Shown: positions 3,607 through 63,522, numbered from the stretch's first letter. The stretch is DNA of 64,000 bases from Candidatus Aquidulcis sp. (GCA_020723385.1 DYIZ01000010.1:5190-69189), one strand, 5' to 3'. Program-made: numbers and translations. Notes: generated by a model from the letters alone, not told the origin.

Positions 3607-5613
3607 TTATCGCTTCAACAGAGATTGATACAGCGTTTGCAGCGCATCCTGCGGCTCGACCCCCAAATCATCCCGCAGGGATTTCTCCAATGTTTTATAC
3701 AAACGTAAAGCCCCCGAGCGATTCTCCAACCCCAGGCAGGCGCGCATCCCGAGCAGCGCTGCCTGCTCCTGCCAGGGTTCGAGCGCCAGCACTTTCTGGC
3801 AGGCCTCGAGCGATTCCTGGAAATGGCCTTTCTCGAAAGCCGCCTCGGCCACGGCCAGCAAAGCGTGCTGGCACCATTGCGCCAGCCGCTGGCGCAGCGC
3901 CACCGCCCAGTCGGCGTAACGATATTCGGGGAGGAATTCACCGCTGTAAGCGGCCAGCGCCGCCGCCCAATCCCGCTGGCGGTAGCGAGCCTCGAAAGTT
4001 TCGAAATCCACCGTCGAGGCGGGCGGTAACCGGAGAGTCACCTGCCCCTCGCTGACTTCCAGGTAGCGCGAGGGGAATTTCTCCGGCAGGTCGGGTTCGA
4101 GCGCCCGCCGCAGCGTAGAGGTGGCGTGATGGAAAAGCGCCTGCGCCGCCGATGAGCTTTTTTCGGGCCACAACACATCGGCAACCTGATCGAATGACAA
4201 CGACCTCCCCGGGCTGGTCAGCAGCAAACCGAGCAGCTCCCCCGATCTCCGTTGGCGGAGAGCCTGTTTTTCGAGAGACCGCGCTCCCACTCGCACCTGC
4301 CAGCCTCCGAGCGTGACGATCCTCATCGGCGGCGCGGGAACCTGTTGAAGATGATCCAACAAGCTGACGCTGACGCTCGCCACAGATTTGTCTCGACTAT
4401 CGAGGCCAGCCACAATCAGCGGGAAAACCAACGATCGCTCTCGGTCTGCGAGAAAGACGAATCCCCCCTGCGCCAATCGGGAGGCGGCCTCCCGCCAGGC
4501 GTCGGCGGCCCCAGGATGGCCCTGTTGATGGAAAAGCGCTGCCAGGAGCAGGAGCGCGATGGCCCGGTCGAAATCGAGCCGCAAGGGAGCCAGCCGCTCG
4601 ATGGCGGCGCGCAGATCCGCTTCGGCGGCGGGAAGATCACCCAGCGCCCAGGCGGCGCGGGCGCGCTCGATCAGCGCCTCACCCTGCAAATGGTGGTACC
4701 CGGTTCGCTCGACAATTGCCAGCGCATCGGCAGCCCAGGCGACTGCTGACGGGTTATCGCCCGCCGCCCGGCTCAGGCGGCTCATCCCCAGGCGGGCCAG
4801 GAAGCGGTTCTCGGCGATGCCGTTGGCTTCGGCAATAGACAGGGTTTTCGCGAACCAATCGCGGGCTGTTGCAGTGTCGCCATCTTCGAGCGCCAGGCTG
4901 GCCTGGATGAAATGCCAGTATCCATCTCCCAGCGAGCCGGGCGAAACTGCCTCGTGGAGTTCCGCCAACCGGCTTTCGGCGGGCTGACGCTGCCCGGTGA
5001 GCCAGTACACCCAGCTCATGGTGAGCAGCGGCCCCCAGGCCATCTCCGGCATCCCGCGTGACCGGGCAATCTTGAGCGACTCTTCGTCTGCGGCTAACGA
5101 GAGGGCAAACTGGCCGCGCGGCATGTAAATTCCGCACGAGAGGGCGTGCAGGCCGCGCACGAGCACGCGGTCGTAGCCAATTTGACGGCTCAGGTCAACC
5201 GCCTGCTGGGTGAACTGCTCCGAGGCGGCCAAATCGTCGGTCTCGCCGGCGCAGATGCCCACGTCGAGCAGCGCGTCGGCGCGGGCGGTGGATTCTGGCC
5301 CAGCCAGCGCCAGCGCCTGGTCGCAGAGTTCTCTTGCCTGTTCGTAATGTCCCAGCCGGATGTGCGCGTAAGCCAGGGCGTTCAGCGCGGTAGCCTCACT
5401 CTCGGCATCCCCCGCGGCTTGCGCCAACTGCTGCGCCTGCTTCGCCCGCTGGATGGACGCGGCTATCTCCCCGGCGCGCTCCAGCGTGCGGCTTTCATCA
5501 ATCAGGGAGAGAATTTCATTGGCTGGTGAATCCACCGGTTTATTTTCGTTTATGATAGGCAATCTTCGACGCAAATTACGCCAATTGGGCGAATGACGCG
5601 AATTTTTGTACAT
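3607..5613 (-). CDS. TPR + winged-helix (OmpR-type) + BTAD transcriptional regulator, SARP-like with inverted domain order
   Basis: 668-aa ORF. The C-terminal 250 aa (GGWQVRVGARSLEKQALRQRRSGELLGLLL...FETFEARY...FLPEYRYADWAVALRQRL...LALEPWQEQAALLGMRACL..GALRLYKTLEKSLRDDLGVEPQDALQTLYQSLL) fit the wHTH + bacterial transcriptional activation domain. The N-terminal two-thirds are TPR-like A/L-rich repeats. Alternative GTG start at 5535 (VDSPANEILSLIDES), because the first 26 codons lie in a repeat array. Confidence 0.8.
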   Translation of the reverse strand: MYKNSRHSPNWRNLRRRLPIINENKPVDSPANEILSLIDESRTLERAGEIAASIQRAKQAQQLAQAAGDAESEATALNALAYAHIRLGHYEQARELCDQALALAGPESTARADALLDVGICAGETDDLAASEQFTQQAVDLSRQIGYDRVLVRGLHALSCGIYMPRGQFALSLAADEESLKIARSRGMPEMAWGPLLTMSWVYWLTGQRQPAESRLAELHEAVSPGSLGDGYWHFIQASLALEDGDTATARDWFAKTLSIAEANGIAENRFLARLGMSRLSRAAGDNPSAVAWAADALAIVERTGYHHLQGEALIERARAAWALGDLPAAEADLRAAIERLAPLRLDFDRAIALLLLAALFHQQGHPGAADAWREAASRLAQGGFVFLADRERSLVFPLIVAGLDSRDKSVASVSVSLLDHLQQVPAPPMRIVTLGGWQVRVGARSLEKQALRQRRSGELLGLLLTSPGRSLSFDQVADVLWPEKSSSAAQALFHHATSTLRRALEPDLPEKFPSRYLEVSEGQVTLRLPPASTVDFETFEARYRQRDWAAALAAYSGEFLPEYRYADWAVALRQRLAQWCQHALLAVAEAAFEKGHFQESLEACQKVLALEPWQEQAALLGMRACLGLENRSGALRLYKTLEKSLRDDLGVEPQDALQTLYQSLLKR

Positions 5614-5646
5614 TCGCGAAATTTGCCCATTCGCGCCATTCGCGTT
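5586..5646. repeat. CATTCGCG word array in inverted arrangement
   Basis: gcgaatg acgcgaat tttttgta cattcgcg aaatttgc ccattcgcg ccattcgcg. It overlaps the annotated start of 3607..5613. Confidence 0.85.
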
Positions 5647-5675
5647 TTAAAAAGGCATTCAGACATCGTCAGAGA

Positions 5676-12797: not shown

Positions 12798-12822
12798 AGG
12801 AGGGGTAGCAAGAACACCAGTA

Positions 12823-12886
12823 CACAAGTAAACAAGTAAACAAGTACACAGGCATGGCTACTTGTTTACTTGTGTACTTGTGTACC
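12823..12886. repeat. inverted array of AACAAGTA / TACTTGTN octamers at the cytochrome c - ccmA junction
   Basis: cacaagta aacaagta aacaagta (12823..12846), a 12-nt spacer, then tacttgtt tacttgtg tacttgtg tacc (12859..12886). The right arm encodes the cytochrome C-terminus YTSTQVNK. Confidence 0.9.
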
Positions 12887-14807: not shown

Positions 14808-14849
14808 AATGAGTTCGAGGAGGCAGATGATGTGGTGCGTGGTGCGTGT

Positions 14850-14905
14850 TTACTTGTTTACTCGCTTACTTGCTGATTTGCTTTTTTGCTCATTTGCTCA
14901 TTTGC
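14850..14905. repeat. seven tandem degenerate octamers (TNANTTGC)
   Basis: ttacttgt ttactcgc ttacttgc tgatttgc ttttttgc tcatttgc tcatttgc, preceded by gtggtgc gtggtgc (14833..14846). The array supplies the last codons (KQMSK) of 14890..15474. Confidence 0.9.
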
Positions 14906-15474
14906 TTGACATTCCGGCTGAGGGCATGGCCGCACTTGGGGCAGAAACGGTCGGATTGTTGCACGGGCTTGCCGCACTTTGGGCAAAAACCGCCCGATTT
15001 ATCCTGCCGGGCGCGGCGCCGGGCGGCGATTTGCGCCTCGATAGAATCATCGGCGTGCGCGGCGGGCTGCTCCGCATAGGCTGAGCCTGTCAGCGTGGCG
15101 CGGCGCGCCGCAATAGCCGCTTCCAGCCGGTCCTCGACTGGGGCTTTGTGCCCATTGGAGGATGCCGCCGCATTGCTGGATGGCAATGCTTGCCCAATGG
15201 CGAGGGTGTCAATTTGCCGCAGCACATCCGCCCCGCGCGTCATCAACGCGCTGCGTTGAGCCGGGTACTCTTCGGGAGGGACCTTGCCCATCGTCGAATC
15301 GAAATCCAATTCTTGCAGCGCTGAAACTATGCGGTCACGTTCAGCCATCAGCGCTGAAAGCTCGTGTTCTTCGTGGCTGACAGCGATGGATTTATGTTCG
15401 AATAGAGGCCGGGCAACGAAAATACCGACCAGCAGCAGGAGAGCGAGGATGAGGAAAATTGAGCCGATATCCAT
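14890..15474 (-). CDS. CcmI-N-terminal-like membrane protein with a C-terminal double-CxxC zinc ribbon (tentative)
   Basis: 194-aa ORF with an N-terminal TM (IFLILALLLLVGIFVA). LQELDFDSTMGKVPPEEYPAQRSALMTRGADVLRQ resembles the CcmI/CycH N-terminal segment. C-terminal CPKCGKPVQQSDRFCPKCG. Confidence 0.5.
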   Translation of the reverse strand: MDIGSIFLILALLLLVGIFVARPLFEHKSIAVSHEEHELSALMAERDRIVSALQELDFDSTMGKVPPEEYPAQRSALMTRGADVLRQIDTLAIGQALPSSNAAASSNGHKAPVEDRLEAAIAARRATLTGSAYAEQPAAHADDSIEAQIAARRRARQDKSGGFCPKCGKPVQQSDRFCPKCGHALSRNVKQMSK

Positions 15475-16546: not shown

Positions 16547-16615
16547 CCGTAAAACGTGATCCGTAAAACGTAAACCTATCCATGAACAATTACGTTTTAC
16601 GTTTTGCGTTTTACG
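16547..16615. repeat. inverted CGTAAAA / ACGTTTT heptamer arrays at the ccmF-ccmH junction
   Basis: ccgtaaaacgtgat ccgtaaaacgtaaac (16547..16575), spacer, then tacgtttt acgtttt gcgtttt acg (16591..16615). Confidence 0.9.
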
Positions 16616-21100: not shown

Positions 21101-21216
21101 CAGGAGTAAGCAGGTCAGCGGGTAAACAGGTAAACAGGGAGGAAGCAGATACCTGCCTACCTGTCTACCTGCCTACCTGTCTACTTGCCTACCTGTCTAC
21201 TTGCCTACTTGTTTAC
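21101..21216. repeat. compound inverted array: GTAAACAGG words facing eight CTG(C/T)CTAC octamers
   Basis: gtaagcaggtcagcgggtaaacaggtaaacaggg (left). On the right (21153..21216): ctgcctac ctgtctac ctgcctac ctgtctac ttgcctac ctgtctac ttgcctac ttgtttac. This fills the spacer between the binding-protein stop (21205) and the ATPase start. Confidence 0.9.
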
Positions 21217-22287
21217 TTTCACATACTCATTCGTATACGCCTGCAGCACATCCATTCTTTGCGTCAGCAGCCCCATATCCAGCAGCACTTGCTGCATATT
21301 CTCCCAGGCGGCCGGGTCCGACTGCCCAATGACATCGGCCTTCCAGAATTCAATGGAGGTCGCCAAAACCTGCTTTTGCACGGCCTGGTCGGCTTGAGCC
21401 AGCGTGGGGACGAAGGCGTTACAGATTTCGAAGGCTTCTTCGGGATAGGCAATCGTATCGGCGATGCCGCGCAGCATGGCCTGCACCATCCGCCGCACCA
21501 AATCGGGATTATCGGCCAGCGTTTCCTCGTTGGTGATCAGCCCGTTCGAGGCAAGCTGCACCACGTCAGCCACGCGGATCACGTCAATCTCGTAACCCTG
21601 GGCGCGCAACTGCACCGGCTCGTTGGCCGCGTACACCACCACCGCCTGCTCCTGACCGGCCGCCAGCGCCTCCACCTGTGTAAAGCCGATCACATCCAGC
21701 GTCACGTCGCTTTCCTTCAGCCCGGCGGCGTTCAACAAGGCGCGGAAGCCGATGTAGCTGGCCCCGGAGAGCATCGGGATGCCAATCTTCTTCCCGGCCA
21801 AATCCTGGGGGGTTTTGATGCCCGCTTCGGTCTTGGCTGCCACCGCCACGGGATAATCCTGATACCAGGCTGTCACGTATACCACCGGCAGCCCCTGGGC
21901 GCGCGCCAGCAGCACCTGCTCGCCCGAGACGACCGCGAATTGCAGCTCACCCGTCCCCACCAGCCCGACCGCGTCGGTCTCGAAGCTGTAATCGAACTCG
22001 ACTTCGATGCCCGCCTGGCGAAAATAACCTTTCTGCACGGCAACGTACAGCGGGGCAAACTGCACATTGGGGATATATCCAACGGGCAGACGGATGCGAG
22101 TAAGCGCGGGGACGGCGCTGCCCGGATCGGGGTAGGGGTCAGAACTGCCGACGATGGGAACGTACACCGCCGGAGGGGGGTAGGCTCCACCCGTGGGAGT
22201 CGCGGTACCCTTTGGGGCAGGGCCGGTGCAACTGCCTAAAACCAGCGTCAAAACGAGAAAAACAACCGGGATGCGCCAATTTTTCAT
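21205..22287 (-). CDS. NMT1/ThiY/SsuA-type periplasmic substrate-binding lipoprotein (RibY-like by context)
   Basis: Start ATG 22287 after GAGGAG. Lipobox LVLGSCTG. VGYIPNVQFAPLYVAVQKGYF ... DVIGFTQVEALAAGQ is typical of NMT1/THI5-like binding proteins. Confidence 0.8.
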   Translation of the reverse strand: MKNWRIPVVFLVLTLVLGSCTGPAPKGTATPTGGAYPPPAVYVPIVGSSDPYPDPGSAVPALTRIRLPVGYIPNVQFAPLYVAVQKGYFRQAGIEVEFDYSFETDAVGLVGTGELQFAVVSGEQVLLARAQGLPVVYVTAWYQDYPVAVAAKTEAGIKTPQDLAGKKIGIPMLSGASYIGFRALLNAAGLKESDVTLDVIGFTQVEALAAGQEQAVVVYAANEPVQLRAQGYEIDVIRVADVVQLASNGLITNEETLADNPDLVRRMVQAMLRGIADTIAYPEEAFEICNAFVPTLAQADQAVQKQVLATSIEFWKADVIGQSDPAAWENMQQVLLDMGLLTQRMDVLQAYTNEYVKVNK

Positions 22288-23125: not shown

Positions 23126-23192
23126 AACAAATCTGCCCCGAGACACATTTCGGGGCAGGAAAAATCAAACACCATCCGCGCGGGTCAATAAT

Positions 23193-23241
23193 GCTGAAAG
23201 CTGACTGCTGAACGCTGAACGCTGAACGCTGATAGCTCTAA
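23193..23241. repeat. seven GCTGAAC-type heptamers inside the riboswitch expression platform
   Basis: gctgaaa gctgact gctgaac gctgaac gctgaac gctgata gctctaa. Confidence 0.9.
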
Positions 23242-28378: not shown

Positions 28379-29536
28379 TTACCCCAATTCCTTGATGATC
28401 CGCTCGATCTCCAGCCCCAATGATGACCCAACAGATTCGATGCCCTGCAATCCCTTCAATCCCATCGTGCGGTATACCAACCCGATGTCCTGCTCCAGGT
28501 CATCAACCGCCCAGGCCGCTTTGCGATACGCCCACACGCGGTAGCTGGAGGCGTTTGCCAGCTCCAGCGTGTACAACTTTTCGGCCAGCCTCTCGACGAT
28601 GCGCTTGTTGAGGGCGCGTTTGTCGGTGGGGATGATCGGGCGCGGCACACGGTCGCGGATGCCATATTTTTCGCACAGCTCACGGATTTTCAGGGCGATG
28701 CGCGGCCATTGCCAACCCCCCGCCGGGCTGTAGCTCCCCTGGGGATACAGAGTCCCGTACAATGCCAATAAATCCGGGAAACGCTGGCCCAACACGCCGA
28801 GGAAGTAGTTTTTCTGTTGGTCGGAGAGCGTCAGCCCGCTTGCCAGCACGAACTTCCCGCCGTGATCGGCTGTCCAGCGCACTACAGCTTCGAGGTTGGC
28901 ATCGTCGTCGCACATCCCCGGCAGGATTGGCATCATGCACGTTCCGGTGAGCAGGCCGGCTTTGGCGAACTGCGCCATCGCCGCAAAGCGCTTCTCCGGC
29001 GGCGGGGCGAGATGCTCGATCTGGCGCACGCGGTCGTAATTGGGCGAGTCGGGCGTGCTGATGATGCTGAAAGCCACCACCGACGGGGCGCGCTGGTTGA
29101 TAGAGGCAATCAAGTCAAGGTCGCGCAGCACCCCGGGGTTGCGCTCCAGCACGAAGACCGGGAACCCCAGGTCGTGGCACACTTCCAGCATCCGGCGGGA
29201 GACCTGGAATTTGCGCTCGAGGGGCTGGTAATCGCCGGTGAAAACCAGATCAACCGGGCAGCGGCCCAGGGCGCGACGCAGCAACTCCGGGGCGTTCTCC
29301 TTGATTTTGATGGTGTAGGCAAAATCATTGGGATCGTCGTAAGGGGAGTATTTGCGCTCACGGCAGTAGCAAAACTCACAGCCGTGCTGGCAGCCGATGT
29401 AGGGATAGGCCGAATAGCGCGTCCAAAACCAGTGGTCGGCGCGTTTGCTTTTGTTGAGCACGGTTTTGGGCTGATATGTTATGAAAGTCGCTCGCCGTGG
29501 AAAGTAGAGGGAGGAGGGTGGAGGGTGGAGGGTCAT
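28379..29536 (-). CDS. radical SAM protein (SplB/DNA-photolyase-like family) with a C-terminal helix-hairpin-helix-like region
   Basis: CX3CX2C cluster motif YIGCQHGCEFCYC, with the typical upstream LNKSKRADHWFW..YSAYPY. The first codons (MTLHPPPSS) are encoded by a GGAGGGT x3 array (29513..29533). Confidence 0.8.
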   Translation of the reverse strand: MTLHPPPSSLYFPRRATFITYQPKTVLNKSKRADHWFWTRYSAYPYIGCQHGCEFCYCRERKYSPYDDPNDFAYTIKIKENAPELLRRALGRCPVDLVFTGDYQPLERKFQVSRRMLEVCHDLGFPVFVLERNPGVLRDLDLIASINQRAPSVVAFSIISTPDSPNYDRVRQIEHLAPPPEKRFAAMAQFAKAGLLTGTCMMPILPGMCDDDANLEAVVRWTADHGGKFVLASGLTLSDQQKNYFLGVLGQRFPDLLALYGTLYPQGSYSPAGGWQWPRIALKIRELCEKYGIRDRVPRPIIPTDKRALNKRIVERLAEKLYTLELANASSYRVWAYRKAAWAVDDLEQDIGLVYRTMGLKGLQGIESVGSSLGLEIERIIKELG

Positions 29537-29538
29537 AA

Positions 29539-29570
29539 GCGAGGGGCGAAAGGCGAGGGCCGAGGGGCGA
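29539..29570. repeat. left inverted repeat flanking the four-helix-bundle gene (GAGGGGC-type heptamers)
   Basis: gcgaggggcgaaaggcgagggccgaggggcga. The terminal 18 nt (29553..29570) are the exact reverse complement of 30001..30018. Confidence 0.9.
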
Positions 29571-29573: not shown

Positions 29574-29960
29574 TCAGGTTTGATCTTTGGGCAGCCATTT
29601 GCGGGGTTCGGACATCATCAGCGATAATTGGCCGCCAATATGATCGTAACGATCAGAAAGTTCAGCGTGTTTCTCGGGGGTAATGTAACCGAAGCGCAGT
29701 GAAAAATCAAGCCAAACAATTGTCTCGGCGGCTTCCATGTCTGCGTCGCTGAGTTTACTGACAAAATTATTGGGATAGCGTCGCTTTCGCCATGCCTCGG
29801 CAGTATTAGCGCAAACGGAACGCGACGAACGGCGAATTTGATCTGTCAGACTATATTTCTCCTCAACCGGGAACCGTTTTGTCAGTTCATAAATCTCGAC
29901 CGCTGTCTCGAAAGCCAGTTGGTAAACCCGCAACTCACGAAAACTCTTCACTGGTGTCAT
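29574..29960 (-). CDS. four-helix-bundle protein (23S rRNA intervening-sequence protein family)
   Basis: ATG 29960 preceded by AAGGAGG; the TTG 29978 of the track is less likely. SFRELRVYQLAFETAVEIYELTKRFPVEEKYSLTDQIRRSSRSVCANTAEAW is the hallmark N-terminus of this family. Confidence 0.8.
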   Translation of the reverse strand: MTPVKSFRELRVYQLAFETAVEIYELTKRFPVEEKYSLTDQIRRSSRSVCANTAEAWRKRRYPNNFVSKLSDADMEAAETIVWLDFSLRFGYITPEKHAELSDRYDHIGGQLSLMMSEPRKWLPKDQT

Positions 29961-29991: not shown

Positions 29992-30882
29992 TCACTTCAT
30001 TCGCCCCTCGGCCCTCGCCCCCTCGCTCCTCGCCCCTCGGAACAACTCCCACGACCCGATCACAGCACCTGCCAAAATGAGAACCATGGCGACCCCCGAA
30101 ATCCACGTGAACGCTCTTCCTCCAATCGAGACCAGCAGCAGCGTGGACGTGAGCGGTGTGAGATACGCCAGCGAGCCGATGATACGCGGGTCGCCGCGTT
30201 TGAGGGCCGCATCCCAGGTGAAGAAAGCCAATCCCATCGGCCCTGCGCCGAGCAGCGCCAGGTACAGCCAGTCCAGCCCGGTGGGAATGTACACTTCCCC
30301 GGAGGCTGCCGCCCCCAGGGCGTACACCCCCAGCGACAGCACCCCCGACGCCAGGCAGAACGCCCCCACCGCCCCGGTCGGGAACGGCGGGACGCGCTTG
30401 GTGAGCAGCGAATAGGACGACCACACAAAAGCCGCGCCCCCGGCGAGCAGATAGCCTCCCAGGTTAGCCGCGTCCAGGGAGAGCTTGCCGCCGGTCACAA
30501 TCAGCCCCGCGCCCGCCAGCCCAATCACCGCCCCAAGAATATGATGGGGTCTCAGCCGGGAGCCGGGCAGGATCACCGGAGTCAGCACCACGATCAGCAG
30601 CGGCCACAGGTAATTCATCAGGTTGGCCTCCACCGCCGGAGCGTGCTGGAACGCCACGAAGAGCAGGAAATGATAGCCGAAAAGTCCATACACCCCGACT
30701 GCGAAAGTCGTCCACGGCACACGCCAGTCGCGGAATTTAGGCAGGCCAATCAACCCGCCCACGCACAGCGCCACCCCCACCAGCAAAAACGGCGGCACAT
30801 GCTTGAGTTGCGCGCCCAGCGTAGCAAGAAAGCTCCACATGGCGATGGTGAAGAAAGCGAGCAACGTGGATGAACGCGGCAT
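29992..30882 (-). CDS. EamA/DMT-family transporter
   Basis: About ten TM segments in two similar halves. Start at ATG 30882 (MPRSSTLLAFFTIAMWSF), because the longer track ORF would overlap alr. Confidence 0.8.
   Translation of the reverse strand: MPRSSTLLAFFTIAMWSFLATLGAQLKHVPPFLLVGVALCVGGLIGLPKFRDWRVPWTTFAVGVYGLFGYHFLLFVAFQHAPAVEANLMNYLWPLLIVVLTPVILPGSRLRPHHILGAVIGLAGAGLIVTGGKLSLDAANLGGYLLAGGAAFVWSSYSLLTKRVPPFPTGAVGAFCLASGVLSLGVYALGAAASGEVYIPTGLDWLYLALLGAGPMGLAFFTWDAALKRGDPRIIGSLAYLTPLTSTLLLVSIGGRAFTWISGVAMVLILAGAVIGSWELFRGARSEGARAEGRMK
30001..30040. repeat. right inverted repeat flanking the four-helix-bundle gene
   Basis: tcgcccctcggccctcgccccctcgctcctcgcccctcgg. It also encodes the C-terminal tail (GARSEGARAEGRMK) of the EamA ORF. 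Confidence 0.9.
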
Positions 30883-40365: not shown

Positions 40366-41295
40366 TCATTTCACCTGCAACCCAAAACTACGCAGCCTCT
40401 CTGCAATCATCTGCATCCGCTCGCCCGAGGGCGCGACGGTCCCCGGCAGGCGATTGACTTTGCCCAGCCCGGAATATTTGCCGTCCGCCGAGGCGTGATA
40501 CGGCAGCAATTCGACTGGATGGCGGTGAGGCAGGCAAGTCAGAAATTCCCCGGTGCGGCGGATATTATCCTCGTCATCGTTGATTCCAGGGACAATAGGG
40601 ATGCGGATTGTAATGGCCTGGCCTGCTTTAGATAGCTTGCGTAAATTGGAGAGGATCAGCGCATTCGAGACACCGGTATAGCGGCGGTGCTTCTCATCGT
40701 CCATCAGCTTGAGATCGTACAGAAAGAGATCGGTATACGGTCGGATGCTTTCGATGACCGGCCAGGCGGTGAAACCGCTGGTATCTACGGTGGTGTGAAT
40801 CTCGCGGGTTTTACAGGCTCTCAGCAATTCGAGCAGGAACTCCCGCTGGAGCAGCGGCTCCCCGCCCGAAAAAGTCACCCCGCCCCCGGATTCATCGTAA
40901 AACGGGATGTCGCTGACAATTTCTGCCAAAACCTGGGCAACCGTCATCTCCCGCCCGGCGATCTCCCGTGCTTCTGCGTAGCACACTTCGGCGCACTCCC
41001 CACAAACCTGGCACAGCGTGCGATTGGTGACCGGCGGCGGGAGACCGTTGGCCGTTGACCGTTGACCGCCGAAAGCTGACCGCTGAAAGCTGATGGCTTC
41101 ATTTCGGCACTCAGCTACACACGCTTCGCAACCGATGCAGCGATTCTCGCGGAAAATCAATTCTGGCTGGGACGATTGGCTCTCGGGGTTGTGGCACCAC
41201 CAGCAATCAAGGGGGCAGCCTTTGAGAAACACGGTGGTGCGGATGCCCGGCCCGTCGTGAATGGCGTACCTGCGAATGTCGAAAACCATGCCCAT
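40366..41295 (-). CDS. glycyl radical enzyme activating enzyme (radical SAM, with two ferredoxin-like 4Fe-4S motifs)
   Basis: IHDGPGIRTTVFLKGCPLDCWWCHNPE (CX3CX2C) plus CIGCEACVAEC and CQVCGECAEVC. Start 41295 or 41289. Confidence 0.9.
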   Translation of the reverse strand: MGMVFDIRRYAIHDGPGIRTTVFLKGCPLDCWWCHNPESQSSQPELIFRENRCIGCEACVAECRNEAISFQRSAFGGQRSTANGLPPPVTNRTLCQVCGECAEVCYAEAREIAGREMTVAQVLAEIVSDIPFYDESGGGVTFSGGEPLLQREFLLELLRACKTREIHTTVDTSGFTAWPVIESIRPYTDLFLYDLKLMDDEKHRRYTGVSNALILSNLRKLSKAGQAITIRIPIVPGINDDEDNIRRTGEFLTCLPHRHPVELLPYHASADGKYSGLGKVNRLPGTVAPSGERMQMIAERLRSFGLQVK

Positions 41296-41420: not shown

Positions 41421-41456
41421 ACATTCGTGTTATTCGTCCATTCGTGACATTCGTGA
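41421..41456. repeat. four CATTCGTG words upstream of the GntR start
   Basis: acattcgtg ttattcgt ccattcgtg acattcgtg aaaaa. Confidence 0.85.
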
Positions 41457-44630: not shown

Positions 44631-44669
44631 CTGTTCACTGTTCACTGATAACCGATAACTGATTACAGG

Positions 44670-44679
<10 letters not shown>
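44631..44679. repeat. seven CTG(T/A)TNA heptamers overlapping the maeB stop
   Basis: ctgttca ctgttca ctgataa ccgataa ctgatta caggtca ctgatgc. Confidence 0.85.
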
Positions 44680-53528: not shown

Positions 53529-53530
53529 GT

Positions 53531-53614
53531 CAGTGACCAGTTATCAGTAATCAGTAATCAGTGATCAGTAATCAGTGATCAGTGATCAGTGATCAGTAAT
53601 CAGTAATCAGTAGA
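53531..53614. repeat. twelve tandem CAGT(G/A)AT heptamers starting 3 nt from the MBL start codon
   Basis: cagtgac cagttat cagtaat cagtaat cagtgat cagtaat cagtgat cagtgat cagtgat cagtaat cagtaat cagtaga. Confidence 0.95.
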
Positions 53615-53636
53615 AGTACAAAGAGTTGCCAACTTG

Positions 53637-53700
53637 CATATTTGCTGATTTGCTGATTTGCCTATTTGCTGATTTGCCTATTTGCTCATTTGCTCTCTTG
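53637..53700. repeat. eight tandem C(T/C)NATTTG octamers, partly complementary to the adjacent heptamer array
   Basis: catatttg ctgatttg ctgatttg cctatttg ctgatttg cctatttg ctcatttg ctctcttg. This covers the stop and last codons of 53686..54411. Confidence 0.95.
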
Positions 53701-54411
53701 CCGCCGCCTCTTGAGCAGTTTCATCCCAAACTCGATGATACTGTCCAGGCTGAGCACTGAGCCGAGCAGCGCCCCCCCCCCGCCGATCACCCGCGCGGTC
53801 ACGCCGCCTACCCCAAATAAATTGACCGCCCGGATTTCGAGGCGCTGCGCCGAGACGACCAGCTCGCTCGGGTCGCCGCCGGCTTTGGGGATGAAGTGCA
53901 GCTTGAGCCAGACGGTGCCGCGGTAATCCCCCACCGCTTCGGGCTGCACGCTCCAATAGAACGTGACCGATTGCCCCGGCAGCAGCGGCTGGCTGATGTG
54001 TTCGGCAGGCGAGATGTTCAGCCCGGCGATGTCGAGCCAGGATTCGGCCATCACGTTGTGCGTGTCGTACAGGTTCGGGATAGTGACATTCCCGCCGCCA
54101 ACCTCGTGCCCGCCCACCTCGGCGGTGGGGATGATGTTCCCCAGCGTGTCCACTTCCAAGGTCAGGCGCACAGTGTCCGAATCACCGGCGCGGATGGCGT
54201 TGGGCCATTCCAGCGTCAGGCGGCGGGATTCGGTGATGGCGGGGACTGCGGTCGCTGCCTCGACTCCCGGAGACATGGGAGTCGCGCCGGGAGCCTGGGT
54301 CGGCTGGGGGCTGGGGAGAGCTTGCGTCCCGGCGCAGGCGTAAGCGGCGAGCGCCAGCATAACAATGGCGATCAACGGGACACAGCGGGAACGGAACGGT
54401 CGGCGGGACAT
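53686..54411 (-). CDS. hypothetical exported protein with a C-terminal membrane anchor
   Basis: Start chosen at ATG 54411 (MSRRPFRSRCVPLIAIVMLALAAYACAG). C-terminal hydrophobic VIGGGGALLGSVLSL. No recognised domain. Confidence 0.5.
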   Translation of the reverse strand: MSRRPFRSRCVPLIAIVMLALAAYACAGTQALPSPQPTQAPGATPMSPGVEAATAVPAITESRRLTLEWPNAIRAGDSDTVRLTLEVDTLGNIIPTAEVGGHEVGGGNVTIPNLYDTHNVMAESWLDIAGLNISPAEHISQPLLPGQSVTFYWSVQPEAVGDYRGTVWLKLHFIPKAGGDPSELVVSAQRLEIRAVNLFGVGGVTARVIGGGGALLGSVLSLDSIIEFGMKLLKRRRQESK

Positions 54412-54649
54412 GAGTCTCTTCCGGGTCAGATGATCCCCATCAGCCCAGGGATCCATCCCTCCGGGGTGGGAAGCTGCATCTGGGTGGGAGCGATCAACAG
54501 GCTGCGAGTCGCATCTCCGAGAGGCCATAATCCCCAGATCAATAGCGCCAGAGAGATGAGCAAGATCAATAATCCGATCAACCGGCGGGCGGTGCGTGCG
54601 TTCATGCGACAATTATACTTGGCTTTGATTCGGAAGCGTGCTACACTTC

Positions 54650-54684
54650 CAGTGAACAGTAATCAGTGATCAGTCATCAGTGAA
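54650..54684. repeat. five CAGTNA(T/A) heptamers directly upstream of the tryptophanase RBS
   Basis: cagtgaa cagtaat cagtgat cagtcat cagtgaa, then aggaaaggttATG. Confidence 0.9.
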
Positions 54685-54694: not shown

Positions 54695-56077
<1,383 letters not shown>

Positions 56078-56163
56078 AAGTTGAAGGTCGGCAGAGCCTG
56101 CCCTGAGCTTATCGAAGGGTTGAAGGTGAATCACTGAAAGGATGAAAAGGATGATGAATAGGC

Positions 56164-56214
56164 CACGAATACGCGAATGGCGGCTTGCGGGCCATGGTCA
56201 TTCGCGTATTCGTG
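56164..56214. repeat. perfect 16-bp inverted repeat built from CATTCGCG/CACGAAT words
   Basis: cacgaatacgcgaatg (56164..56179), a 19-nt loop, cattcgcgtattcgtg (56199..56214); between tnaA and the TA pair. Confidence 0.9.
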
Positions 56215-58110: not shown

Positions 58111-59196
58111 ATGAAGTCTTCCAATAACCAAAAACGCTTTAGCCTCGTGCTTGCCGTTGTGCTGATCCTGGTCAGCGCCTGCACGGCAGCCGAAACCCCC
58201 ACCGCTCAACCGGCAGCGACGAATCCGCCCGCCGCGACCGCCGTCGCCGCCGCGCCCTCTGCGACAGCCACATCGACGGTTAAACCCTCCGCCACGCCGC
58301 TCCCATCGGCAGCAGCCACTTCGACGCCGACGATTGCGTCTACAGCTACATCCACCCTGACCCCGCTGCCATCAGCAACGTTCACCACCACGCCGACGGC
58401 CACGCCGGCTTTTATCACACCGGGCTTCTATGGCGCGGGGGGGTGTTTGGAATATAGGTATACCCCTTCTTTGACGATTGATTTTTGCGTGATCAACGTC
58501 GAGGTTCGATGGGATCATCACATGGTGGTGACTGTATCATGGATCAATAATGGGGCTTCGCCTGCCGGTTCTATTACCAAACCTTCTGATATGGGTAATA
58601 CCGATATTTATTTGACAGATAACCTGGGAAATCACTACGATCATGTCAACGTCGGCGGCGACGCGGCCAGGAATATCGAACTGTTATCTGGGATCACTTA
58701 TCTCGGCACTTTTACTTTTCCCCCCGCGCAGCCTGGGGCGACAATCTTTACTTTCCACGACAGCGACAATGGTCTGGAAATTGACGATATGGCCTTGATC
58801 ACCCCGGCTATTTACACATTCCGGCTGCCTCTCAAATGGTATCCTTCACTGACTTTTGAATACCGCTCAGACCTGTGGACATCCAGCCTGACCGAAGACG
58901 GCGGCGGCCTGCTGACACACACAGAAATCCCCGCTTGCCAGATTCTCGAATGGCAGCCATCCGAAATCCAGGGCAAGTACAAGAATACCATGCCAATCGG
59001 CCCGGTCACTTACGAAATCTACGGCTGGTCCGAACCGGAATGGGGCGTGCGCGAGTACCTCGCCGCGAGCGGTATCGAGACCTACGATTTCGCCGTCAAG
59101 CCGCTCTTTCATGTCACCATCCCTTACGACACAGCCGAACGCTGCCTGAACGATGCCAGCATCGTCCTGGCGACCCTGCGCCTGCTCCAACCGTAG
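58111..59196 (+). CDS. hypothetical lipoprotein with a Thr/Ala/Pro-rich linker
   Basis: ATG 58111 after AGGAG. Signal + lipobox LILVSACTA. Long ATSTPT linker, then a globular domain with no recognised motif. Confidence 0.65.
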   Translation: MKSSNNQKRFSLVLAVVLILVSACTAAETPTAQPAATNPPAATAVAAAPSATATSTVKPSATPLPSAAATSTPTIASTATSTLTPLPSATFTTTPTATPAFITPGFYGAGGCLEYRYTPSLTIDFCVINVEVRWDHHMVVTVSWINNGASPAGSITKPSDMGNTDIYLTDNLGNHYDHVNVGGDAARNIELLSGITYLGTFTFPPAQPGATIFTFHDSDNGLEIDDMALITPAIYTFRLPLKWYPSLTFEYRSDLWTSSLTEDGGGLLTHTEIPACQILEWQPSEIQGKYKNTMPIGPVTYEIYGWSEPEWGVREYLAASGIETYDFAVKPLFHVTIPYDTAERCLNDASIVLATLRLLQP

Positions 59197-59243
59197 CCCC
59201 TATCCCTTATCCCCTCGCCCCTATCCCCATTCGGAGATAGGGG
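59197..59243. repeat. five CCCCTAT-type heptamers plus an inverted ATAGGGG word
   Basis: cccctat cccttat cccctcg cccctat ccccatt cggag atagggg c. The reverse family (atagggg ttagggg gcagggg) recurs at 63386..63406. Confidence 0.9.
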
Positions 59244-59359
59244 CGGCCGGTATGTTATAATCCCCTCGGCTCATCACAAAGGATCGCAACCCATGACCAA
59301 CCTTCTGTAGCAACCATCACTCTCTCGGGGTACCCAACCGTCGTGTTCGATTTTCCACG

Positions 59360-59406: not shown

Positions 59407-61047
59407 ATGCTGACCGCCCACCACCTCTGCAAATCTTACAGTATCTCCCCCATCCTCAAAGACGTCTCTTTCAGCATCAACCCGGCCGAACGGGTCGGGC
59501 TGATCGGCCCCAACGGGTGCGGCAAAACCACCTTGCTGCGCATCCTCGCCGGCCAGGAGACGCCCGACGAGGGCGTTGTCACCGCGCCGCCCTCGCTGCG
59601 CATCGGCTATCTCCAGCAAGGATTCGCGGCGGGCGATCACGCAACCCTCGGGGATCTGATCCGGCAGGCGGTGGGCGATCCGCAGGCCGCCGAGGCGGAG
59701 GTCGCCCGGCTGGCCTCGGCGCTCTCCGCCCAGCCTGACCGCCAGGATTTGCAGACCGCCTACGACGCCGCCCTCCAGCGGCTGCAGGTCATCGCCCAGG
59801 GCGATACCGGCCAGGCCGAAGGGATTCTGAAAGCCCTCGGGCTGTCGGCCATCCCGCAGGGTCAGTTGGCCGCCACCCTCAGCGGCGGGCAGAAAACCCG
59901 CCTGGCGCTGGCCCTCGTGCTTCTCGGCCGCCCGCAGTTGCTGCTCCTCGATGAACCCACCAACCACCTCGACATCGAAATGCTGGAATGGCTCGAAACC
60001 TGGCTGCAAAGCTACCCCGGCGCGGCGCTCATCGTCTCGCACGACCGCACGTTTCTCGATCACACCGTCAGCCGCGTGCTGGACCTCGACCCGGAGACTC
60101 ACATGCTGCGAGAATACACCGGCAATTACAGCGCCTACCTCGAGCAGTACCTCGCCGGGCGCCAGCGGCAGATGGCGGCCTACCGCGACCAGGAATACGA
60201 GATTCGCCGCATAAAGCAGGACATCGCCCGCGCCAAGCAGCAGTCGCTCAAGGTCGAGTTATCCACCACCCCGCGCCAGCCGGGCGTGCGCCGCATCGCC
60301 AAAAAAGTGGCGCGCAAGGCACTCTCACGTGAAAAGAAGCTGGATCGTTATCTCGAATCCGACGAGCGCGTCGAAAAAGTGCGCGAAAGCTGGCAGATGA
60401 AAGCCGACATTTTCTCGGCCGAGTTCGGCGCAGCACCCCGCTCGGGGCAGGATGTGCTGACACTCGAAAACCTGGCGGTGGGATACCCCGGATGCGCCCC
60501 CCTGCTGGAAGGCGTCAACCTGTATGTGCGCGCCGGGCGGCGGGTGGCCATCACTGGGCCGAATGGGGCCGGCAAAACCTCGTTGGTGCGTACCATCGCC
60601 GGGAGCCTACCGCCCGTGGCGGGATCGCTGCGCCTGGGAGCGAACACCCGCCTGGGCTACATGGCCCAGGAGCAGGAACTGGTTGATCCCGCCCGCAGCG
60701 CGCTGGAAATCATTCAAAGCGCCGCCCCTCTAAACGACACCGAGGCGCGTGCCTTTCTGCACTACTTCCTGTTCACCGGCGACGATCCGCTGCGCCCGGC
60801 CCGTGAGTTGAGCTTCGGCGAGCGGGCGCGTCTCAGCTTGGCCGCGCTGGTGGCGCAAGGCTGCAACTTCCTCCTGCTCGACGAGCCGATCAACCACCTC
60901 GACATCCCCTCGCGTGCCCGTTTCGAGCAGGCATTGGCGCAGTTCGATGGCACCGTGCTGGCCGTGGTTCACGACCGCTACTTCATCGAGCGTTTCGCCG
61001 ACGAGATGTGGGTGGTCGCCGCGGGCAGTGTGAGGCAGAATTTTTAG
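59407..61047 (+). CDS. ABC-F family ATPase (two NBDs, no TM domain)
   Basis: ATG 59407 after AGGAG. Walker A GPNGCGKTT and GPNGAGKTS. Signatures LSGGQKTRLALA and LSFGERARLSLA. Basic interdomain linker (RRIKQDIARAKQQSLK...RRIAKKVARKALSREKK). Confidence 0.85.
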   Translation: MLTAHHLCKSYSISPILKDVSFSINPAERVGLIGPNGCGKTTLLRILAGQETPDEGVVTAPPSLRIGYLQQGFAAGDHATLGDLIRQAVGDPQAAEAEVARLASALSAQPDRQDLQTAYDAALQRLQVIAQGDTGQAEGILKALGLSAIPQGQLAATLSGGQKTRLALALVLLGRPQLLLLDEPTNHLDIEMLEWLETWLQSYPGAALIVSHDRTFLDHTVSRVLDLDPETHMLREYTGNYSAYLEQYLAGRQRQMAAYRDQEYEIRRIKQDIARAKQQSLKVELSTTPRQPGVRRIAKKVARKALSREKKLDRYLESDERVEKVRESWQMKADIFSAEFGAAPRSGQDVLTLENLAVGYPGCAPLLEGVNLYVRAGRRVAITGPNGAGKTSLVRTIAGSLPPVAGSLRLGANTRLGYMAQEQELVDPARSALEIIQSAAPLNDTEARAFLHYFLFTGDDPLRPARELSFGERARLSLAALVAQGCNFLLLDEPINHLDIPSRARFEQALAQFDGTVLAVVHDRYFIERFADEMWVVAAGSVRQNF

Positions 61048-61078
61048 ACCCCAAGGGTTTCAGAAACCCCTGGGGTCT
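61046..61078 (+). terminator. hairpin after the ABC-F gene (GGTTT-loop-AAACC family), no strong U-tract
   Basis: agaccccaagggttt cag aaacccctggggtct (one mismatch); overlaps the TAG stop. Confidence 0.45.
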
Positions 61079-61214
61079 GCAAACAGGGATTGTCATTTTC
61101 CCCGTTCGCGATGATAATATTCACGCCGCTCGCATCCTCGAGCGAGACGGCAGCCATAGAACTTTCAACCTGTAACCTTCAACCCATTTGGCCCCTACCC
61201 TGGAGGAGGGAACC

Positions 61215-62147: not shown

Positions 62148-62447
62148 GCGATTAAACGAGGTTCTTCCGGCTCTGATGTGAGAGATCAATAAGGAGTCCA
62201 GGAATCCAGGAGAAAAACAAGTAAAACAAGCCCTTTTCCTGCTTTCCTGGATTCCTTATGTTCAACGTTCTCTTAAGTCCAATCCGGAAGAGCCTTAAAC
62301 GATCAATAGAACGTGGACTGGCGCGGATGGATGCGGAAAAAGCGGGTAAAATTCGAGAATACTTGATTCCGCGTTCGCCGGCGGCCATCCCGGATGTTCT
62401 TTATCCGCTGCGTCCTATAAAAATTTCGCCTGCCCAAACCGATTAAC

Positions 62448-63389
62448 ATGACTTCCCCAACCCCCTCCCCCGTCCTCATCGTTGGAACCGGCGCATTGGG
62501 CTGCCTGTTTGCCGCCCGCCTGTCAGCCGCCGGGATACCCGTCACCCTGCTCGGCAGTTGGCCCGAGGGGCTGGAGGCCCTCGCCCGGAACGGCGTCATC
62601 CTGGTCGAGGCGGATGGCCGCCAGCAGGCTTATCCTGTGCAGGTCGCCACCGAGGCCAGCGAGTGCGTTGGGGCAAAGGCCGCCCTGGTGCTGGTCAAAT
62701 CCTGGCAGACTCAGCACGCCGCCCGGCAACTGGCGCGCTGCCTGCCCGCCGACGGGCTGGCGCTGACCCTGCAAAACGGGATGGGCAACCTCGAGACGCT
62801 GGTGCGTCACCTGGGCGCGTCACGCGTCGCCCTGGGGGTCACCACCGCCGGGGCCACGCTGCTTGGGCCGGGGCAAGTGCGCGCCGCCGGCGATGTCCGC
62901 GGGACTGCCCCCATCACCCTGGGGATTCACGCCCGCCTGGCGCCGCTGGTCGAGCTGCTGCGCGCCGCAGGGTTCGTTATCGAGACGGTCAATGACACCA
63001 CCTCGCTGCTGTGGGGCAAGCTGGTCATCAACGCCGCCATCAACCCGCTGACCGCCCTTCTGGGCGTGTCCAACGGCGAGCTGCTGGCGCGGCCCACCGC
63101 CCGTACACTGTTGACAACCGTGGCGCGGGAAGCAGCGTCGGTTGCCGTCGCCAAAGGCGTTAACCTGCCCTATCCCGACCCGGTGATCGCCACCGAAGCC
63201 ATCGCCCGCAGCACCGCCAGCAACCGCTCGTCCATGCTGCAAGACGTCGAACGCGGCGCTCCGACCGAGGTAGACGCCATCAGCGGGGCCATCGTGCGGG
63301 CGGGCGAAGAGACCAGCGTGCCCACTCCCGTCAACCGTACGCTGTGGCAGTTGGTGAAGGGGATGGTAGAGCAGGGAAGCAAGGGATAG
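62448..63389 (+). CDS. panE: 2-dehydropantoate 2-reductase
   Basis: Rossmann N-terminus VLIVGTGALGCLFAARLSAAG, LWGKLVINAAINPLTAL, SSMLQDVERGAPTEVDAISGAIV. Confidence 0.85.
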   Translation: MTSPTPSPVLIVGTGALGCLFAARLSAAGIPVTLLGSWPEGLEALARNGVILVEADGRQQAYPVQVATEASECVGAKAALVLVKSWQTQHAARQLARCLPADGLALTLQNGMGNLETLVRHLGASRVALGVTTAGATLLGPGQVRAAGDVRGTAPITLGIHARLAPLVELLRAAGFVIETVNDTTSLLWGKLVINAAINPLTALLGVSNGELLARPTARTLLTTVAREAASVAVAKGVNLPYPDPVIATEAIARSTASNRSSMLQDVERGAPTEVDAISGAIVRAGEETSVPTPVNRTLWQLVKGMVEQGSKG

Positions 63390-63522
63390 GGGTTAGGGGG
63401 CAGGGGATTCGAGAGGATGTTTCGACCCGGTTACAATCCGTTTCAATGTCGAAACAGTGATCTGGCATGATGGAACACATAGCCTATTACAATGGTGTCA
63501 AATTCATGCCCGGAGATGACTG

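Follow-up and report, generated by a model that had tools for sequence, protein, structure and literature searches.

We analysed a 64,000-nt stretch of DNA, hereafter the window, from a genome listed as Candidatus Aquidulcis sp. (GCA_020723385.1, DYIZ01000010.1:5190-69189), in which arrays of degenerate 7-9-nt words recur in the spacers between genes. The feature is real and statistically solid, and it is a known kind of repeat in a new lineage (Anaerolineae), not a new kind of thing. The arrays are probably slippage-born repeats with units of 7-9 nt, of the type described as short tandemly repeated repetitive (STRR) sequences or long simple sequence repeats (LSSR), and would be partly co-opted as RNA hairpins or spacers. 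An earlier account made from the sequence without database searches (the sequence-only reading) had pointed out these arrays and suggested that changes in copy number tune the expression of the adjacent genes.

Arrays were called with Tandem Repeats Finder (TRF); the strict set comprised arrays of period 7 or 8 with at least three copies and a score of at least 40, and 100 dinucleotide-preserving shuffles of the window served as the null model. We found 13 strict arrays, whereas the shuffles had 0.01 on average and never more than 1. This corresponds to 0.20 arrays/kb (0.23 arrays/kb with periods 7-9), while loci of other genomes, a background sample of ~2.2 Mb, have ~0.01-0.02 arrays/kb; L-numbers (e.g., L094 and L176) denote loci fetched from these other genomes. 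The merged list contains 21 array loci with a total of 1199 nt, 75% of which lies outside coding sequence (genes were called using a codon-usage heuristic and then corrected with Pfam). Arrays account for 11.7% of intergenic bases, and their density within the window is ~22-fold higher outside genes than inside genes. The view that this is not ordinary intergenic DNA is thus supported by the enrichment over dinucleotide shuffles, and the words quoted by the sequence-only reading were present in 22 of 22 coordinate ranges, with TRF arrays at each. Its statement that arrays occupy most gene junctions was overstated: of the 31 gaps that measure 25 nt or more, 16 contain arrays (co-directional, 12 of 25; divergent, 3 of 5; convergent, 1 of 1), and counted over all 52 junctions the figure is also 16.

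The same words recur at unlinked loci, as had been claimed: 17 pairs of unlinked loci share at least ten 7-mers, compared to means of 2-3 and maxima of 9-10 under two null models. The number of pairs sharing any single 7-mer was an uninformative statistic, with the null above the observed value, and was superseded by this count. Seven word families are used below: F1, CATTCGYG (loci starting at 5569, 41421 and 56164); F2, AACAAGTA (12809, 14847, 21201 and 62214); F3, ATTTGC (14874 and 53626); F4, CAGTRAT (44631, 53530 and 54650); F5, GCTGAAM (23190 and 41043); F6, G-rich words (29507, 30001, 59197 and 63383); and F7, GTTGAAGG (56072 and 61163). The 8-mer words AACAAGTA, NNATTTGC and CTGYCTAC had been listed as separate families; they intergrade inside single arrays (14847-14906 and 21150-21218), and F2, F3 and CTGYCTAC fit one 8-mer superfamily, TGYNNAYY. 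The description of the words as AT-richer fails for F6, whose words GAGGGGC, GAGGGTG and GGGGATA have a GC content of 62-82% (59% for the window). Half of the arrays have 8-9-nt units. Unit identity within arrays is 70-95% (TRF), so the arrays are of the interrupted, degenerate kind, and three weak loci (61163-61185, 62214-62230 and 63386-63406) hold 2-3 degenerate copies each. TRF also detected super-periods of 14, 16 and 24 nt, suggesting that two or three units at a time were duplicated. Two simple rules were tried and rejected: a fixed orientation of words relative to transcription is true for F2, F3 and F5 (n=2-4 each) and is broken by F4, F6 and F7, and selection for stop codons in all three sense frames is not supported by the number of stops (57 sense versus 53 antisense, no bias).

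It could be argued that the arrays reflect low-complexity sequence that arose by chance, or an error of assembly, given the general risk that short-read assemblers mishandle repeats. This explanation is effectively refuted by the excess over the shuffles, by the length of the arrays, which are shorter than a sequencing read, and by arrays of the same kind, with shared words too, in many independent assemblies of relatives. In addition, an independent Logan unitig (run SRR13164373) agrees with the array at 53530 over its initial 46 nt and then breaks, which is the behaviour of a de Bruijn assembler at a true repeat; this agreement indicates that the arrays are not an artefact of one assembly. 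The contigs of the same organism are only short Logan unitigs that end inside an array. The suggestion that relatives look array-poor since their assemblies break at arrays was rejected, because no 7-9-nt periodicity was found in the terminal 45-nt windows of loci with at least one true contig end.

The host is an Anaerolineae bacterium (Chloroflexota) and not a cyanobacterium; the best homologues of RNase Y, TnaA and a four-helix-bundle protein discussed below all belong to Anaerolineae/Chloroflexota metagenome-assembled genomes. The window carries a System I ccm cluster (ccmABC(D)EFH, a thioredoxin-like protein and a multihaem cytochrome), in agreement with the non-cyanobacterial host with System I ccm proposed earlier, and, further, recA-recX-rny, tryptophanase, a glycyl-radical enzyme with its activase, and panBE. 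There is no rRNA within the window, and no protein 87-100% identical to the TnaA of the window was found in a set of 5.8 billion proteins.

There is precedent in other phyla for every trait of the arrays (PMC4679880, PMC4692102, PMC2670836, PMC6749651). In cyanobacteria, STRR hairpins are located between hupS and hupL, with proposed roles in transcript stability and translational coupling (PMC2670836). STRR and the window have in common several dispersed families of 7-nt words in non-coding DNA, words shared by related genera, and inverted arrays as hairpins between co-transcribed genes; the likeness to STRR heptamers that had been noted is apt, whereas the hosts differ, a heterocystous cyanobacterium there and a member of Chloroflexota/Anaerolineae at 59% GC here. 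The canonical STRR1-3 words, which Mazel et al. in 1990 are said to have given as CCCCAGT, TTGGTCA and CAACAGT, form no tandem dimers within the window. To our knowledge, no function or mechanism of spreading has been established for dispersed heptamer/octamer arrays, which are among the oldest puzzles of bacterial genomes; STRR were described in 1990. LSSR, defined statistically by Mrazek et al. (2007) with units of 5-11 nt and a proposed origin by slippage (as summarised in PMC4679880), resemble the arrays in over-chance length, prominent heptamers, sporadic phylogenetic distribution and proposed slippage origin; however, the definition, as given in that summary, is silent on hairpins, word sharing and stop-to-Shine-Dalgarno placement. 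In the same phylum, (GATAGRA)n satellites are scattered through the Chloroflexus aurantiacus genome (Subirana and Messeguer 2019, PMC6749651), likewise a scattered heptamer family, although of the class Chloroflexia and with a single dominant word, and GATAGRA is not tandem within the window. The strangeness of such arrays outside cyanobacteria had thus been overstated, since heptamer arrays are known in Xanthomonas, Burkholderia, Beggiatoaceae, Bacteroidetes and C. aurantiacus (PMC4679880, PMC4692102, PMC6749651). Earlier reports of such arrays in Anaerolineae were not found in the literature searched.

Typically, an array occupies the spacer between the stop codon of the preceding gene and the Shine-Dalgarno site or start codon of the following one. 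At least seven upstream reading frames extend 2-26 nt into the array before they terminate, with array-encoded C-termini such as ...RYTSTQVNK*, ...KQMSK* and ...GG*. The distance from the end of the array to the next start codon is 2-30 nt, and mostly just a Shine-Dalgarno motif is left over. Transcription of the arrays is implied by their position inside co-directional gene strings, including ccm, by (GTTCAGC)6 between a flavin mononucleotide (FMN) aptamer and its terminator, and by (CAGTRAN)5 directly 3' of the conserved extended -10 element of tnaA; the arrays would lie in transcribed spacers, namely operon junctions, 5' untranslated regions (5'UTRs) and the leader of an FMN riboswitch.

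Two structural classes can be distinguished. Inverted arrays are predicted to fold into long hairpins, while direct arrays have no more structure than shuffles. Many of the loci that had been described as tandem arrays are inverted array pairs with hairpin potential instead of plain tandem repeats. Seven junction hairpins (z from -2.95 to -7.7, -23 to -55 kcal/mol) are located at 3' ends or intercistronic sites. On the minus strand, the F1 locus 5569..5646 (TRF), between two minus-strand genes, combines (ACGCGAAT) with inverted (CATTCGCG) at period 8-9 and folds as a single long hairpin (5565-5650, -39.3 kcal/mol, z -5.2); its 18-mer CGAATGACGCGAATTTTT at 5590-5607 has an identical copy in the relative L094 (19461). 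Between a cytochrome c gene and ccmA, (CAAGTAMA)5 and inverted (TACTTGTK)3 (F2, 12809..12886) form arms of 27 nt that are 96% complementary (12805-12890, -38.9 kcal/mol, z -6.0), and the upstream reading frame stops 26 nt into the array. The junction of ccmF and ccmH holds (CGTAAAA)4 and inverted (TTACGTT)3.7 (16548..16615), with the ccmF stop codon in unit 1, the Shine-Dalgarno motif GGAGGG after the final unit, and a hairpin at 16540-16620 (-26.1 kcal/mol, z -4.6). The longest hairpin (21100-21220, -54.8 kcal/mol, z -5.3) is made of (GTAAACAG)4 and inverted (TACCTGYC)8 at 21106..21218, between genes for an NMT1/RibY-like binding protein and an ATP-binding cassette (ABC) ATPase. On the plus strand, the tnaA 3' region carries the inverted F1 pair CACGAATACGCGAATGG/CCATGGTCATTCGCGTATTCGTG (56164..56214; hairpin 56160-56218, -34.5 kcal/mol, z -5.7); (CCCCTAT)4.6 with one inverted ATAGGGG (F6-like, 59197..59243) directly follows a stop codon (hairpin 59193-59247, -23.2 kcal/mol, z -2.95); and at 62192..62260 inverted (AGGAATCC)2.5 arms enclose a loop with AAACAAGTAAAACAAG (F2; hairpin 62185-62265, -35.4 kcal/mol, z -7.7). 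We considered these array hairpins as intrinsic terminators and rejected this idea: none is followed by a T-run, and a consensus scan flags none of them. The same scan does flag the riboswitch terminator (top hit), and canonical GC-hairpin plus T-run terminators were read by eye at other gene ends.

In the transcribed extragenic DNA of enterobacteria, repetitive extragenic palindromic (REP) elements and bacterial interspersed mosaic elements (BIME) form hairpins at 3' ends and in operons. By analogy, the window hairpins probably share with them the protection of mRNA 3' ends and differential expression within an operon. In contrast to REP/BIME, which are single imperfect palindromes, the window hairpins are mirror-image arrays of 7-8-nt units and have no fixed termini.

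The direct arrays in the folded stretches 14828-14910, 23185-23245, 41415-41460, 44625-44685, 53620-53705, 54645-54690 and 56068-56130 are unstructured. The four clear 5'UTR arrays (23190, 41421, 54650 and 61163) are all direct and unstructured. The first of these lies in the FMN riboswitch, whose aptamer was found at 23238-23379 on the minus strand (Rfam RF00050, 96 bits). In the order of the transcript (23379-23123), the aptamer is followed by (GTTCAGC)6, the terminator hairpin (23133-23158) and the ATG (23125) of a BPD_transp_1 permease; the array, direct GCTGAAC on the given strand (sense GTTCAGC; x6, F5, 23190..23241, minus), is thus inside the leader. The 5' end of the aptamer (UUCGGGGCAGG) and the left terminator arm are complementary, and an antiterminator could therefore form across the array. 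The riboswitch precedes a RibXY-like ABC transporter: the NMT1/THI5-like binding protein and the ABC ATPase encoded after the permease look like a riboflavin importer of the RibXY type.

The other direct arrays are as follows in position. At 14832..14906 (minus), GTGGTGC x2.4 and TGTTTACT x3 pass into TGCTSATT x4.6 (F2 to F3) and fill the spacer between a zinc-ribbon gene and a cytochrome c gene, with the upstream stop codon within the array (fold z +0.67). The (CATTCGTGN)4 array (F1, 41421..41456, plus; fold z +0.7) lies in the 5'UTR of a GntR/FCD regulator gene; a resembling (ATTCGTNN)3 is located upstream of a start codon in L095. In the convergent gap at 44631..44679, where no strand is assigned, CTGTTCA, CTGATAA and CACTGAT (F4) directly follow an intrinsic terminator and overlap the stop codon of a malic enzyme-PTA gene. 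One F5-sharing stretch departs from the location at gene junctions that had been claimed: the period-7 stretch GACCGTT/GAAAGCT at 41043..41103 (minus) is within the coding sequence of a glycyl-radical activating enzyme (40366-41319), where it encodes the linker ISFQRSAFGGQRSTANG joining two CxxCxxCxxxC Fe-S motifs. It may be an array captured into the coding region.

The largest array is (TCAGTRA)11.9 at 53530..53612 (minus, F4, TRF score 117-131). In the sense orientation it reads (T[TC]ACTGA)n with ~12 units and stops 2 nt short of the ATG of a metallo-beta-lactamase-fold (MBL) gene, which is without a Shine-Dalgarno motif; the (TCAGTRA)12 stretch is self-complementary (-23.3 kcal/mol). Next to it, direct (ATTTGCYN)8 (F3, 53626..53702, minus; fold z +0.3) contains the stop codon of the gene 53686-54612. 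We considered this gene as an array-flanked insertion between the MBL gene and tnaA and rejected the idea, since a reading frame is at the same place in L089, L090 and L117; L095 has a 50%-identical homologue. The promoter of tnaA has the extended -10 element TGCTACACT (54639..54647, plus), with the same motif upstream in L086-L093. Direct (CAGTRAN)5 (F4, 54650..54684, plus; fold z +0.2) starts 3 nt past TGCTACACT and ends before the Shine-Dalgarno motif AGGAAAGG; it thus makes up practically all of the tnaA 5'UTR. The stop codon of tnaA marks the start of (GGTTGAA)2, a 30-nt insert and one more unit (F7, 56072..56127, plus). The panB 5'UTR has three degenerate, weak CCTTCAAC units (F7 in opposite orientation, 61163..61185, plus), preceded by a promoter-like site at 61090-61118, and a weak G-rich array, (GGGATAG/GGGGNNN)3.7, lies just past the panE stop codon (63383..63408, plus, TRF score 31).

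Marine Beggiatoaceae, Bacteroidetes and some cyanobacteria carry direct TAACTGA repeats (MacGregor 2015, PMC4679880), to which the array at 53530-53612 is a close counterpart. Those heptamers precede start codons by a short distance, change by 7-nt indels and are absent from the corresponding junctions of close relatives (PMC4679880). The likeness extends to the position 2 nt before a start codon without a Shine-Dalgarno motif, to other heptamers mixed in, and to the shorter, repeat-free junctions of close relatives. The units differ, however, at position 2 (TTACTGA and TCACTGA; exact TAACTGA occurs once in the arrays), the F4 word is reversed in the tnaA 5'UTR (54650-54684), where a Shine-Dalgarno motif is present, and is found at a 3' end in 44631-44679, and F4 is one of at least seven window families. 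This counterpart is one argument for arrays as multivalent binding platforms, on which ribosomal protein S1, cold-shock, KH-domain or word-specific proteins would control translation initiation or the fate of the mRNA; the same was proposed for the Beggiatoaceae repeats (PMC4679880). Whole 5'UTRs made of array and words conserved across lineages are also consistent with such platforms. We nevertheless consider them improbable: the word families number at least seven and are unrelated, F4 and F7 are found both along and against the direction of transcription (array strand compared to flanking genes), most array-adjacent genes keep an ordinary Shine-Dalgarno motif, and orthologous 5'UTRs of close relatives have quite different words, which argues against sequence-specific recognition.

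The latter point comes from comparison with relatives. Relatives with TnaA 77-84% identical have ordinary, repeat-free tnaA leaders. The syntenic relatives L177-L180 (maeB-recX-rny-MBL-tnaA) have repeats at the same two junctions, with other words: GACCAAYN in the tnaA 5'UTR of L177 and GATTAGCG in that of L178 and L180, and GRAACGGAT plus an inverted AACGGATT/AATCCGTT hairpin at the tnaA 3' end of L177-L180. In L176 (TnaA 87%), (GGTTGAA)3 is placed exactly behind the conserved ...FEPL C-terminus, where the window orthologue has 2+1 units. The junction ahead of the MBL gene measures 0-45 nt in relatives versus 157 nt here, nearly all of it array. The comparisons show that arrays are gained, lost, replaced and resized fast relative to protein divergence. 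Words sought in related taxa, as the sequence-only reading had suggested, recur at non-orthologous loci: F1 CGAAT arrays in L094 and L095, F7 GGTTGAA in L094 and L176, and F4 CAGTNAN in L171. Under looser criteria, the window has 0.31 arrays/kb, both L176 and L167 have 0.34 and L163 has 0.25, compared to a background of ~0.06; array-rich junctions thus characterise several Anaerolineae lineages, though not all of them.

Length polymorphism was found only for the near-perfect (GAGGGAR)n of L181-L188. The whole spacer before a four-helix-bundle gene in these loci is GTGTG(GAGGGAR)nACGT with n=4, 5, 8 or 10, i.e., 37, 44, 65 or 79 nt in steps of exactly 7 nt, while the encoded four-helix-bundle protein does not differ and flank identity is 98.4-100%. 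L182 has 8 units and L184 has 10, despite 1.7 kb of 100% identical flanks, and L182 and L183 have equal numbers of units with the A/G unit variants in a different order. The Shine-Dalgarno-like motif of the four-helix-bundle gene is part of this array, and the downstream 30-nt C-rich arm, which abuts the next ATG, is invariant. In contrast, no array indel was found in five population genomes with 99.95% identity (2-12 single-nucleotide polymorphisms per 20 kb), and the sole difference in length between L178 and L179 (99.5% identity) is a 137-nt indel of a 68-nt tandem unit. The latter (L178 ~17860-18000) comprises two 68-nt units with a CCGGCTTCTAGCCGG hairpin and belongs to a separate, longer repeat class. 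Perfect repeats that slip and interrupted ones that would be stabilised are ordinary behaviour of simple sequence repeats.

These observations bear on the idea that the arrays are contingency loci, in which frequent slippage of copy number would tune or switch the neighbours via spacing or structure, as the sequence-only reading had it. The 7-nt steps between otherwise identical strains agree with it, as does the position of arrays next to start and stop codons, and copy number could matter where the G-rich array itself is the Shine-Dalgarno-like motif. Still, we find this idea very improbable for the arrays as a whole. Degenerate units (70-95% identity) suppress slippage; the neighbours are housekeeping genes (ccm, tnaA, panBE and riboflavin transport) and not surface or restriction genes; no short array changed its length among the genomes of 99.95% and 99.5% identity; and most arrays are outside promoter spacers and coding frames, where a change in length has no obvious on/off effect. 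Phase-variable contingency repeats differ in the same respects, having near-perfect units located in promoters or at the 5' ends of the coding sequences of surface or restriction genes, and lengths that are polymorphic within populations. Slippage of copy number is thus seen in relatives (GAGGGAR, n=4, 5, 8 and 10), whereas degenerate arrays are invariant at 99.5-99.95% identity. Given degenerate units, housekeeping neighbours and this invariance in relatives, tuning akin to phase variation is unlikely for most window arrays; for near-perfect arrays, e.g., before the four-helix-bundle gene, tuning by slippage is possible.

The homologous gene of the window (29574..29960, minus, 128 aa) encodes a PF05635 '23S rRNA intervening sequence protein' (bAvd-like, Pfam 1.3e-30), a four-helix-bundle protein related to Avd of diversity-generating retroelements (PMC10053308), and has genes for an EamA transporter and a radical-SAM protein on its two sides. 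Mutually inverted F6 arrays stand on either side of it: a 3' arm at 29507..29570, minus, which is (GAGGGTG)3.9 plus (GCGAGGG)4.6 on the plus strand and C-rich in the transcript, and a 5' arm at 30001..30040, minus, which is (TCGCCCC)5.4 on the plus strand and G-rich in the transcript, with a GGG tract each 7 nt. In the predicted fold of the transcript, the G-rich 5' arm pairs with the C-rich 3' arm as a long stem around the reading frame. Five further lineages have G-rich/C-rich heptamer arrays next to the gene at different sites (L163, L167/168, L171-175, L181-188 and L189/190; gene with arrays at L163 9929-10433, L167 9944-10503 and L171 9862-10486), with the words GTGGAGC, AAGCGTG, CGTGAAG and GAGGGAR paired with CACCCTY, CGCTCCA and ACGCTCC. 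An enclosing stem is predicted also in L163 and L184, while in L171 each side of the gene has its own adjoining G-rich and C-rich arrays instead. The consistent occurrence of G-rich and C-rich heptamer arrays beside Avd-like four-helix-bundle genes, paired around the gene where folded, is a specific lead, and we found no description of it in the literature searched.

Two known systems can be compared with this cassette. G-quadruplex-capable heptamers (GGGNATC and GGGGA(C/T)T) of Xanthomonas and Nostoc are transcribed and located between aligned reading frames (Rehm et al. 2015, PMC4692102). F6 is similar in having a GGG(G) tract per 7-nt unit and typically 4-5 or more units (29507-29570, 30001-30040, 59197-59243 and 63383-63408 have such G-tract heptamers), in its location between co-directional genes after stops or before starts, in inverted stem-loop copies, and in length variation between relatives; the words differ (GAGGGTG, GAGGGGC, GGGGATA and GAGGGAR), and the arrays here are paired across a specific gene. 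The second system is the intervening sequence (IVS) of 23S rRNA with PF05635 (e.g., in Leptospira and Coxiella), which also has a reading frame inside an inverted-repeat stem; unlike the IVS, which is inserted in a 23S rRNA gene and excised by RNase III, the predicted cassette stands between protein-coding genes, and its arms are heptamer arrays.

The hairpin arrays might alternatively be non-autonomous mobile elements similar to REP or miniature inverted-repeat transposable elements (MITE), copied by a transposase encoded elsewhere, with direct arrays as decayed or expanded remnants. The recurrence of words at non-orthologous loci within and between lineages, including the 18-mer shared by 5590 and L094 19461, fits with this, and so does the presence of hairpins in extragenic transcribed DNA, as for REP/BIME. 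Furthermore, the two hairpin elements that flank the gene in L171 share long identical 3' halves (read by eye), and many PF05635 homologues are on contigs of just 550-1500 nt, suggesting assembly breaks at flanking repeats. Nonetheless, mobile elements remain an unlikely source. There are no conserved termini, fixed length or shared loops (5569-5646, 56154-56224 and L094 19440-19530), the number of units varies freely in 7-nt steps inside fixed flanks, and the scanned reading frames of the window include no transposase, RAYT or IS200-like gene. The radical-SAM/HHH gene adjoins the four-helix-bundle gene in both the window and L167, indicating that the cassette is at least not a recent insertion. 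The candidate explanation of the four-helix-bundle gene itself as a recent mobile insertion is weakened by the same neighbourhood, although paralogues may differ.

We therefore return to slippage as the preferred origin. Slipped-strand mispairing would create arrays and change their size, duplication of blocks of two and three units would yield the super-periods of 14, 16 and 24 nt, and inverted partner arrays may arise from template switching. Later point mutations would degrade the units and freeze the length of the array, and arrays would survive at sites where they do no harm or bring a slight benefit. At 3' ends and intercistronic sites, hairpins may serve as mRNA end, processing or stability elements, or as uncouplers of translation, by analogy with REP elements and the hupS-hupL STRR hairpin. 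Close to ribosome-binding sites, arrays would presumably be tolerated only if unstructured, serving as leaders that are neutral or of slight benefit. As a special case, the G-rich and C-rich heptamer arms would pair into an IVS-like stem around the four-helix-bundle gene.

Several points weigh against this explanation. Slippage alone leaves identical words at unlinked window loci unexplained, and the words recur at non-orthologous loci of other lineages, with the 18-mer of L094 among them; F6 GTGGAGC/CACCCTC is present around every four-helix-bundle gene examined, and F7 GGTTGAA is present in L094 and L176. The contrast between hairpins and 5'UTR arrays is based on small numbers (4/4 versus about 8/13), copy-number polymorphism was seen in relatives and not in the organism of the window, and the window is 64 kb of one genome, the rest of which was outside the scope of the study. 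It should be noted that we infer every functional step of the explanation. Candidates for the reuse of words are seeding from existing arrays, a shared sequence preference and a word-specific factor. The unexplained reuse leaves room for the mobile-element and protein-binding explanations and also for a sequence-aware one, which we hold to be rather unlikely: an Anaerolineae clade may keep a small vocabulary (CGAATG, CAGTNAN, GGTTGAA, GTGGAGC/CACCCTC and TGYNNAYY) that is repeatedly written into transcribed spacers of further loci by a dedicated sequence-aware mechanism, along with a processed IVS-like cassette. If this were true, the writer would be a word-specific protein or nucleic-acid-templated copying instead of blind slippage, the arrays around Avd-like genes would define an IVS-like RNA cassette processed from operon transcripts, and the copy number of the array would set the stem length of this cassette.

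The arrays add a further non-cyanobacterial lineage, uncultured-type Anaerolineae, to the hosts of such repeats. They also provide natural experiments of unusual clarity: an operon junction that in syntenic relatives is empty, has other words, or has the same word at another copy number; an array inside the expression platform of a riboswitch; and a series of strains distinguished only by the 4 to 10 heptamers before one gene. Such experiments make the choice between junk, RNA structural element and regulator directly testable. In practice, the arrays break unitig assemblies and inflate the calling of reading frames, with spurious small frames and false N- and C-terminal extensions. For example, public calls in L167 (3317-3529, 4752-4982 and 11617-11874) are hypothetical frames of 70-85 aa wholly inside heptamer arrays, indicating that such arrays generate spurious gene predictions.

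Several other features of the window were recorded. A near-identical palindrome, ACTCCCGGGGTTTCCAAAACCCCGGGAGT, is present in three copies (47147-47189, 50893-50935 and 61045-61087), each of which looks like a bidirectional intrinsic terminator. The first copy is inside the longest recA reading frame, in which the RecA domain starts from residue 102; thus, the true start of recA is probably further downstream. Two perfect 26-nt inverted repeats with 3-nt loops are located at 3496-3550 and 32143-32197, the latter at the 3' end of an alanine racemase gene. Right behind the array-rich tnaA 3' region, overlapping genes at 56252-56921 encode an MNT-like nucleotidyltransferase (PF01909/PF18765) and a HepT-like RNase (PF01934), a pair that resembles type VII toxin-antitoxin systems. 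In a 949-nt AT-rich gap, the 38-nt motif CCGCTYGACCGTGACATGGGCYGGCGCGATAWTYGGGG is repeated 95 nt apart (56939-57071), and its second copy contains a promoter-like site. Between the divergent genes for the activase and the GntR/FCD regulator lies TATACAACTTGTATACAATCTTGT (41337-41360), a tandem palindromic motif of the TTGTATACAA type that is typical of GntR/FadR operators. Finally, a 500-aa protein encoded at 1710-3212 (minus) has eight internal repeats of ~150 nt, with a beta-propeller-like look and weak Pfam hits.

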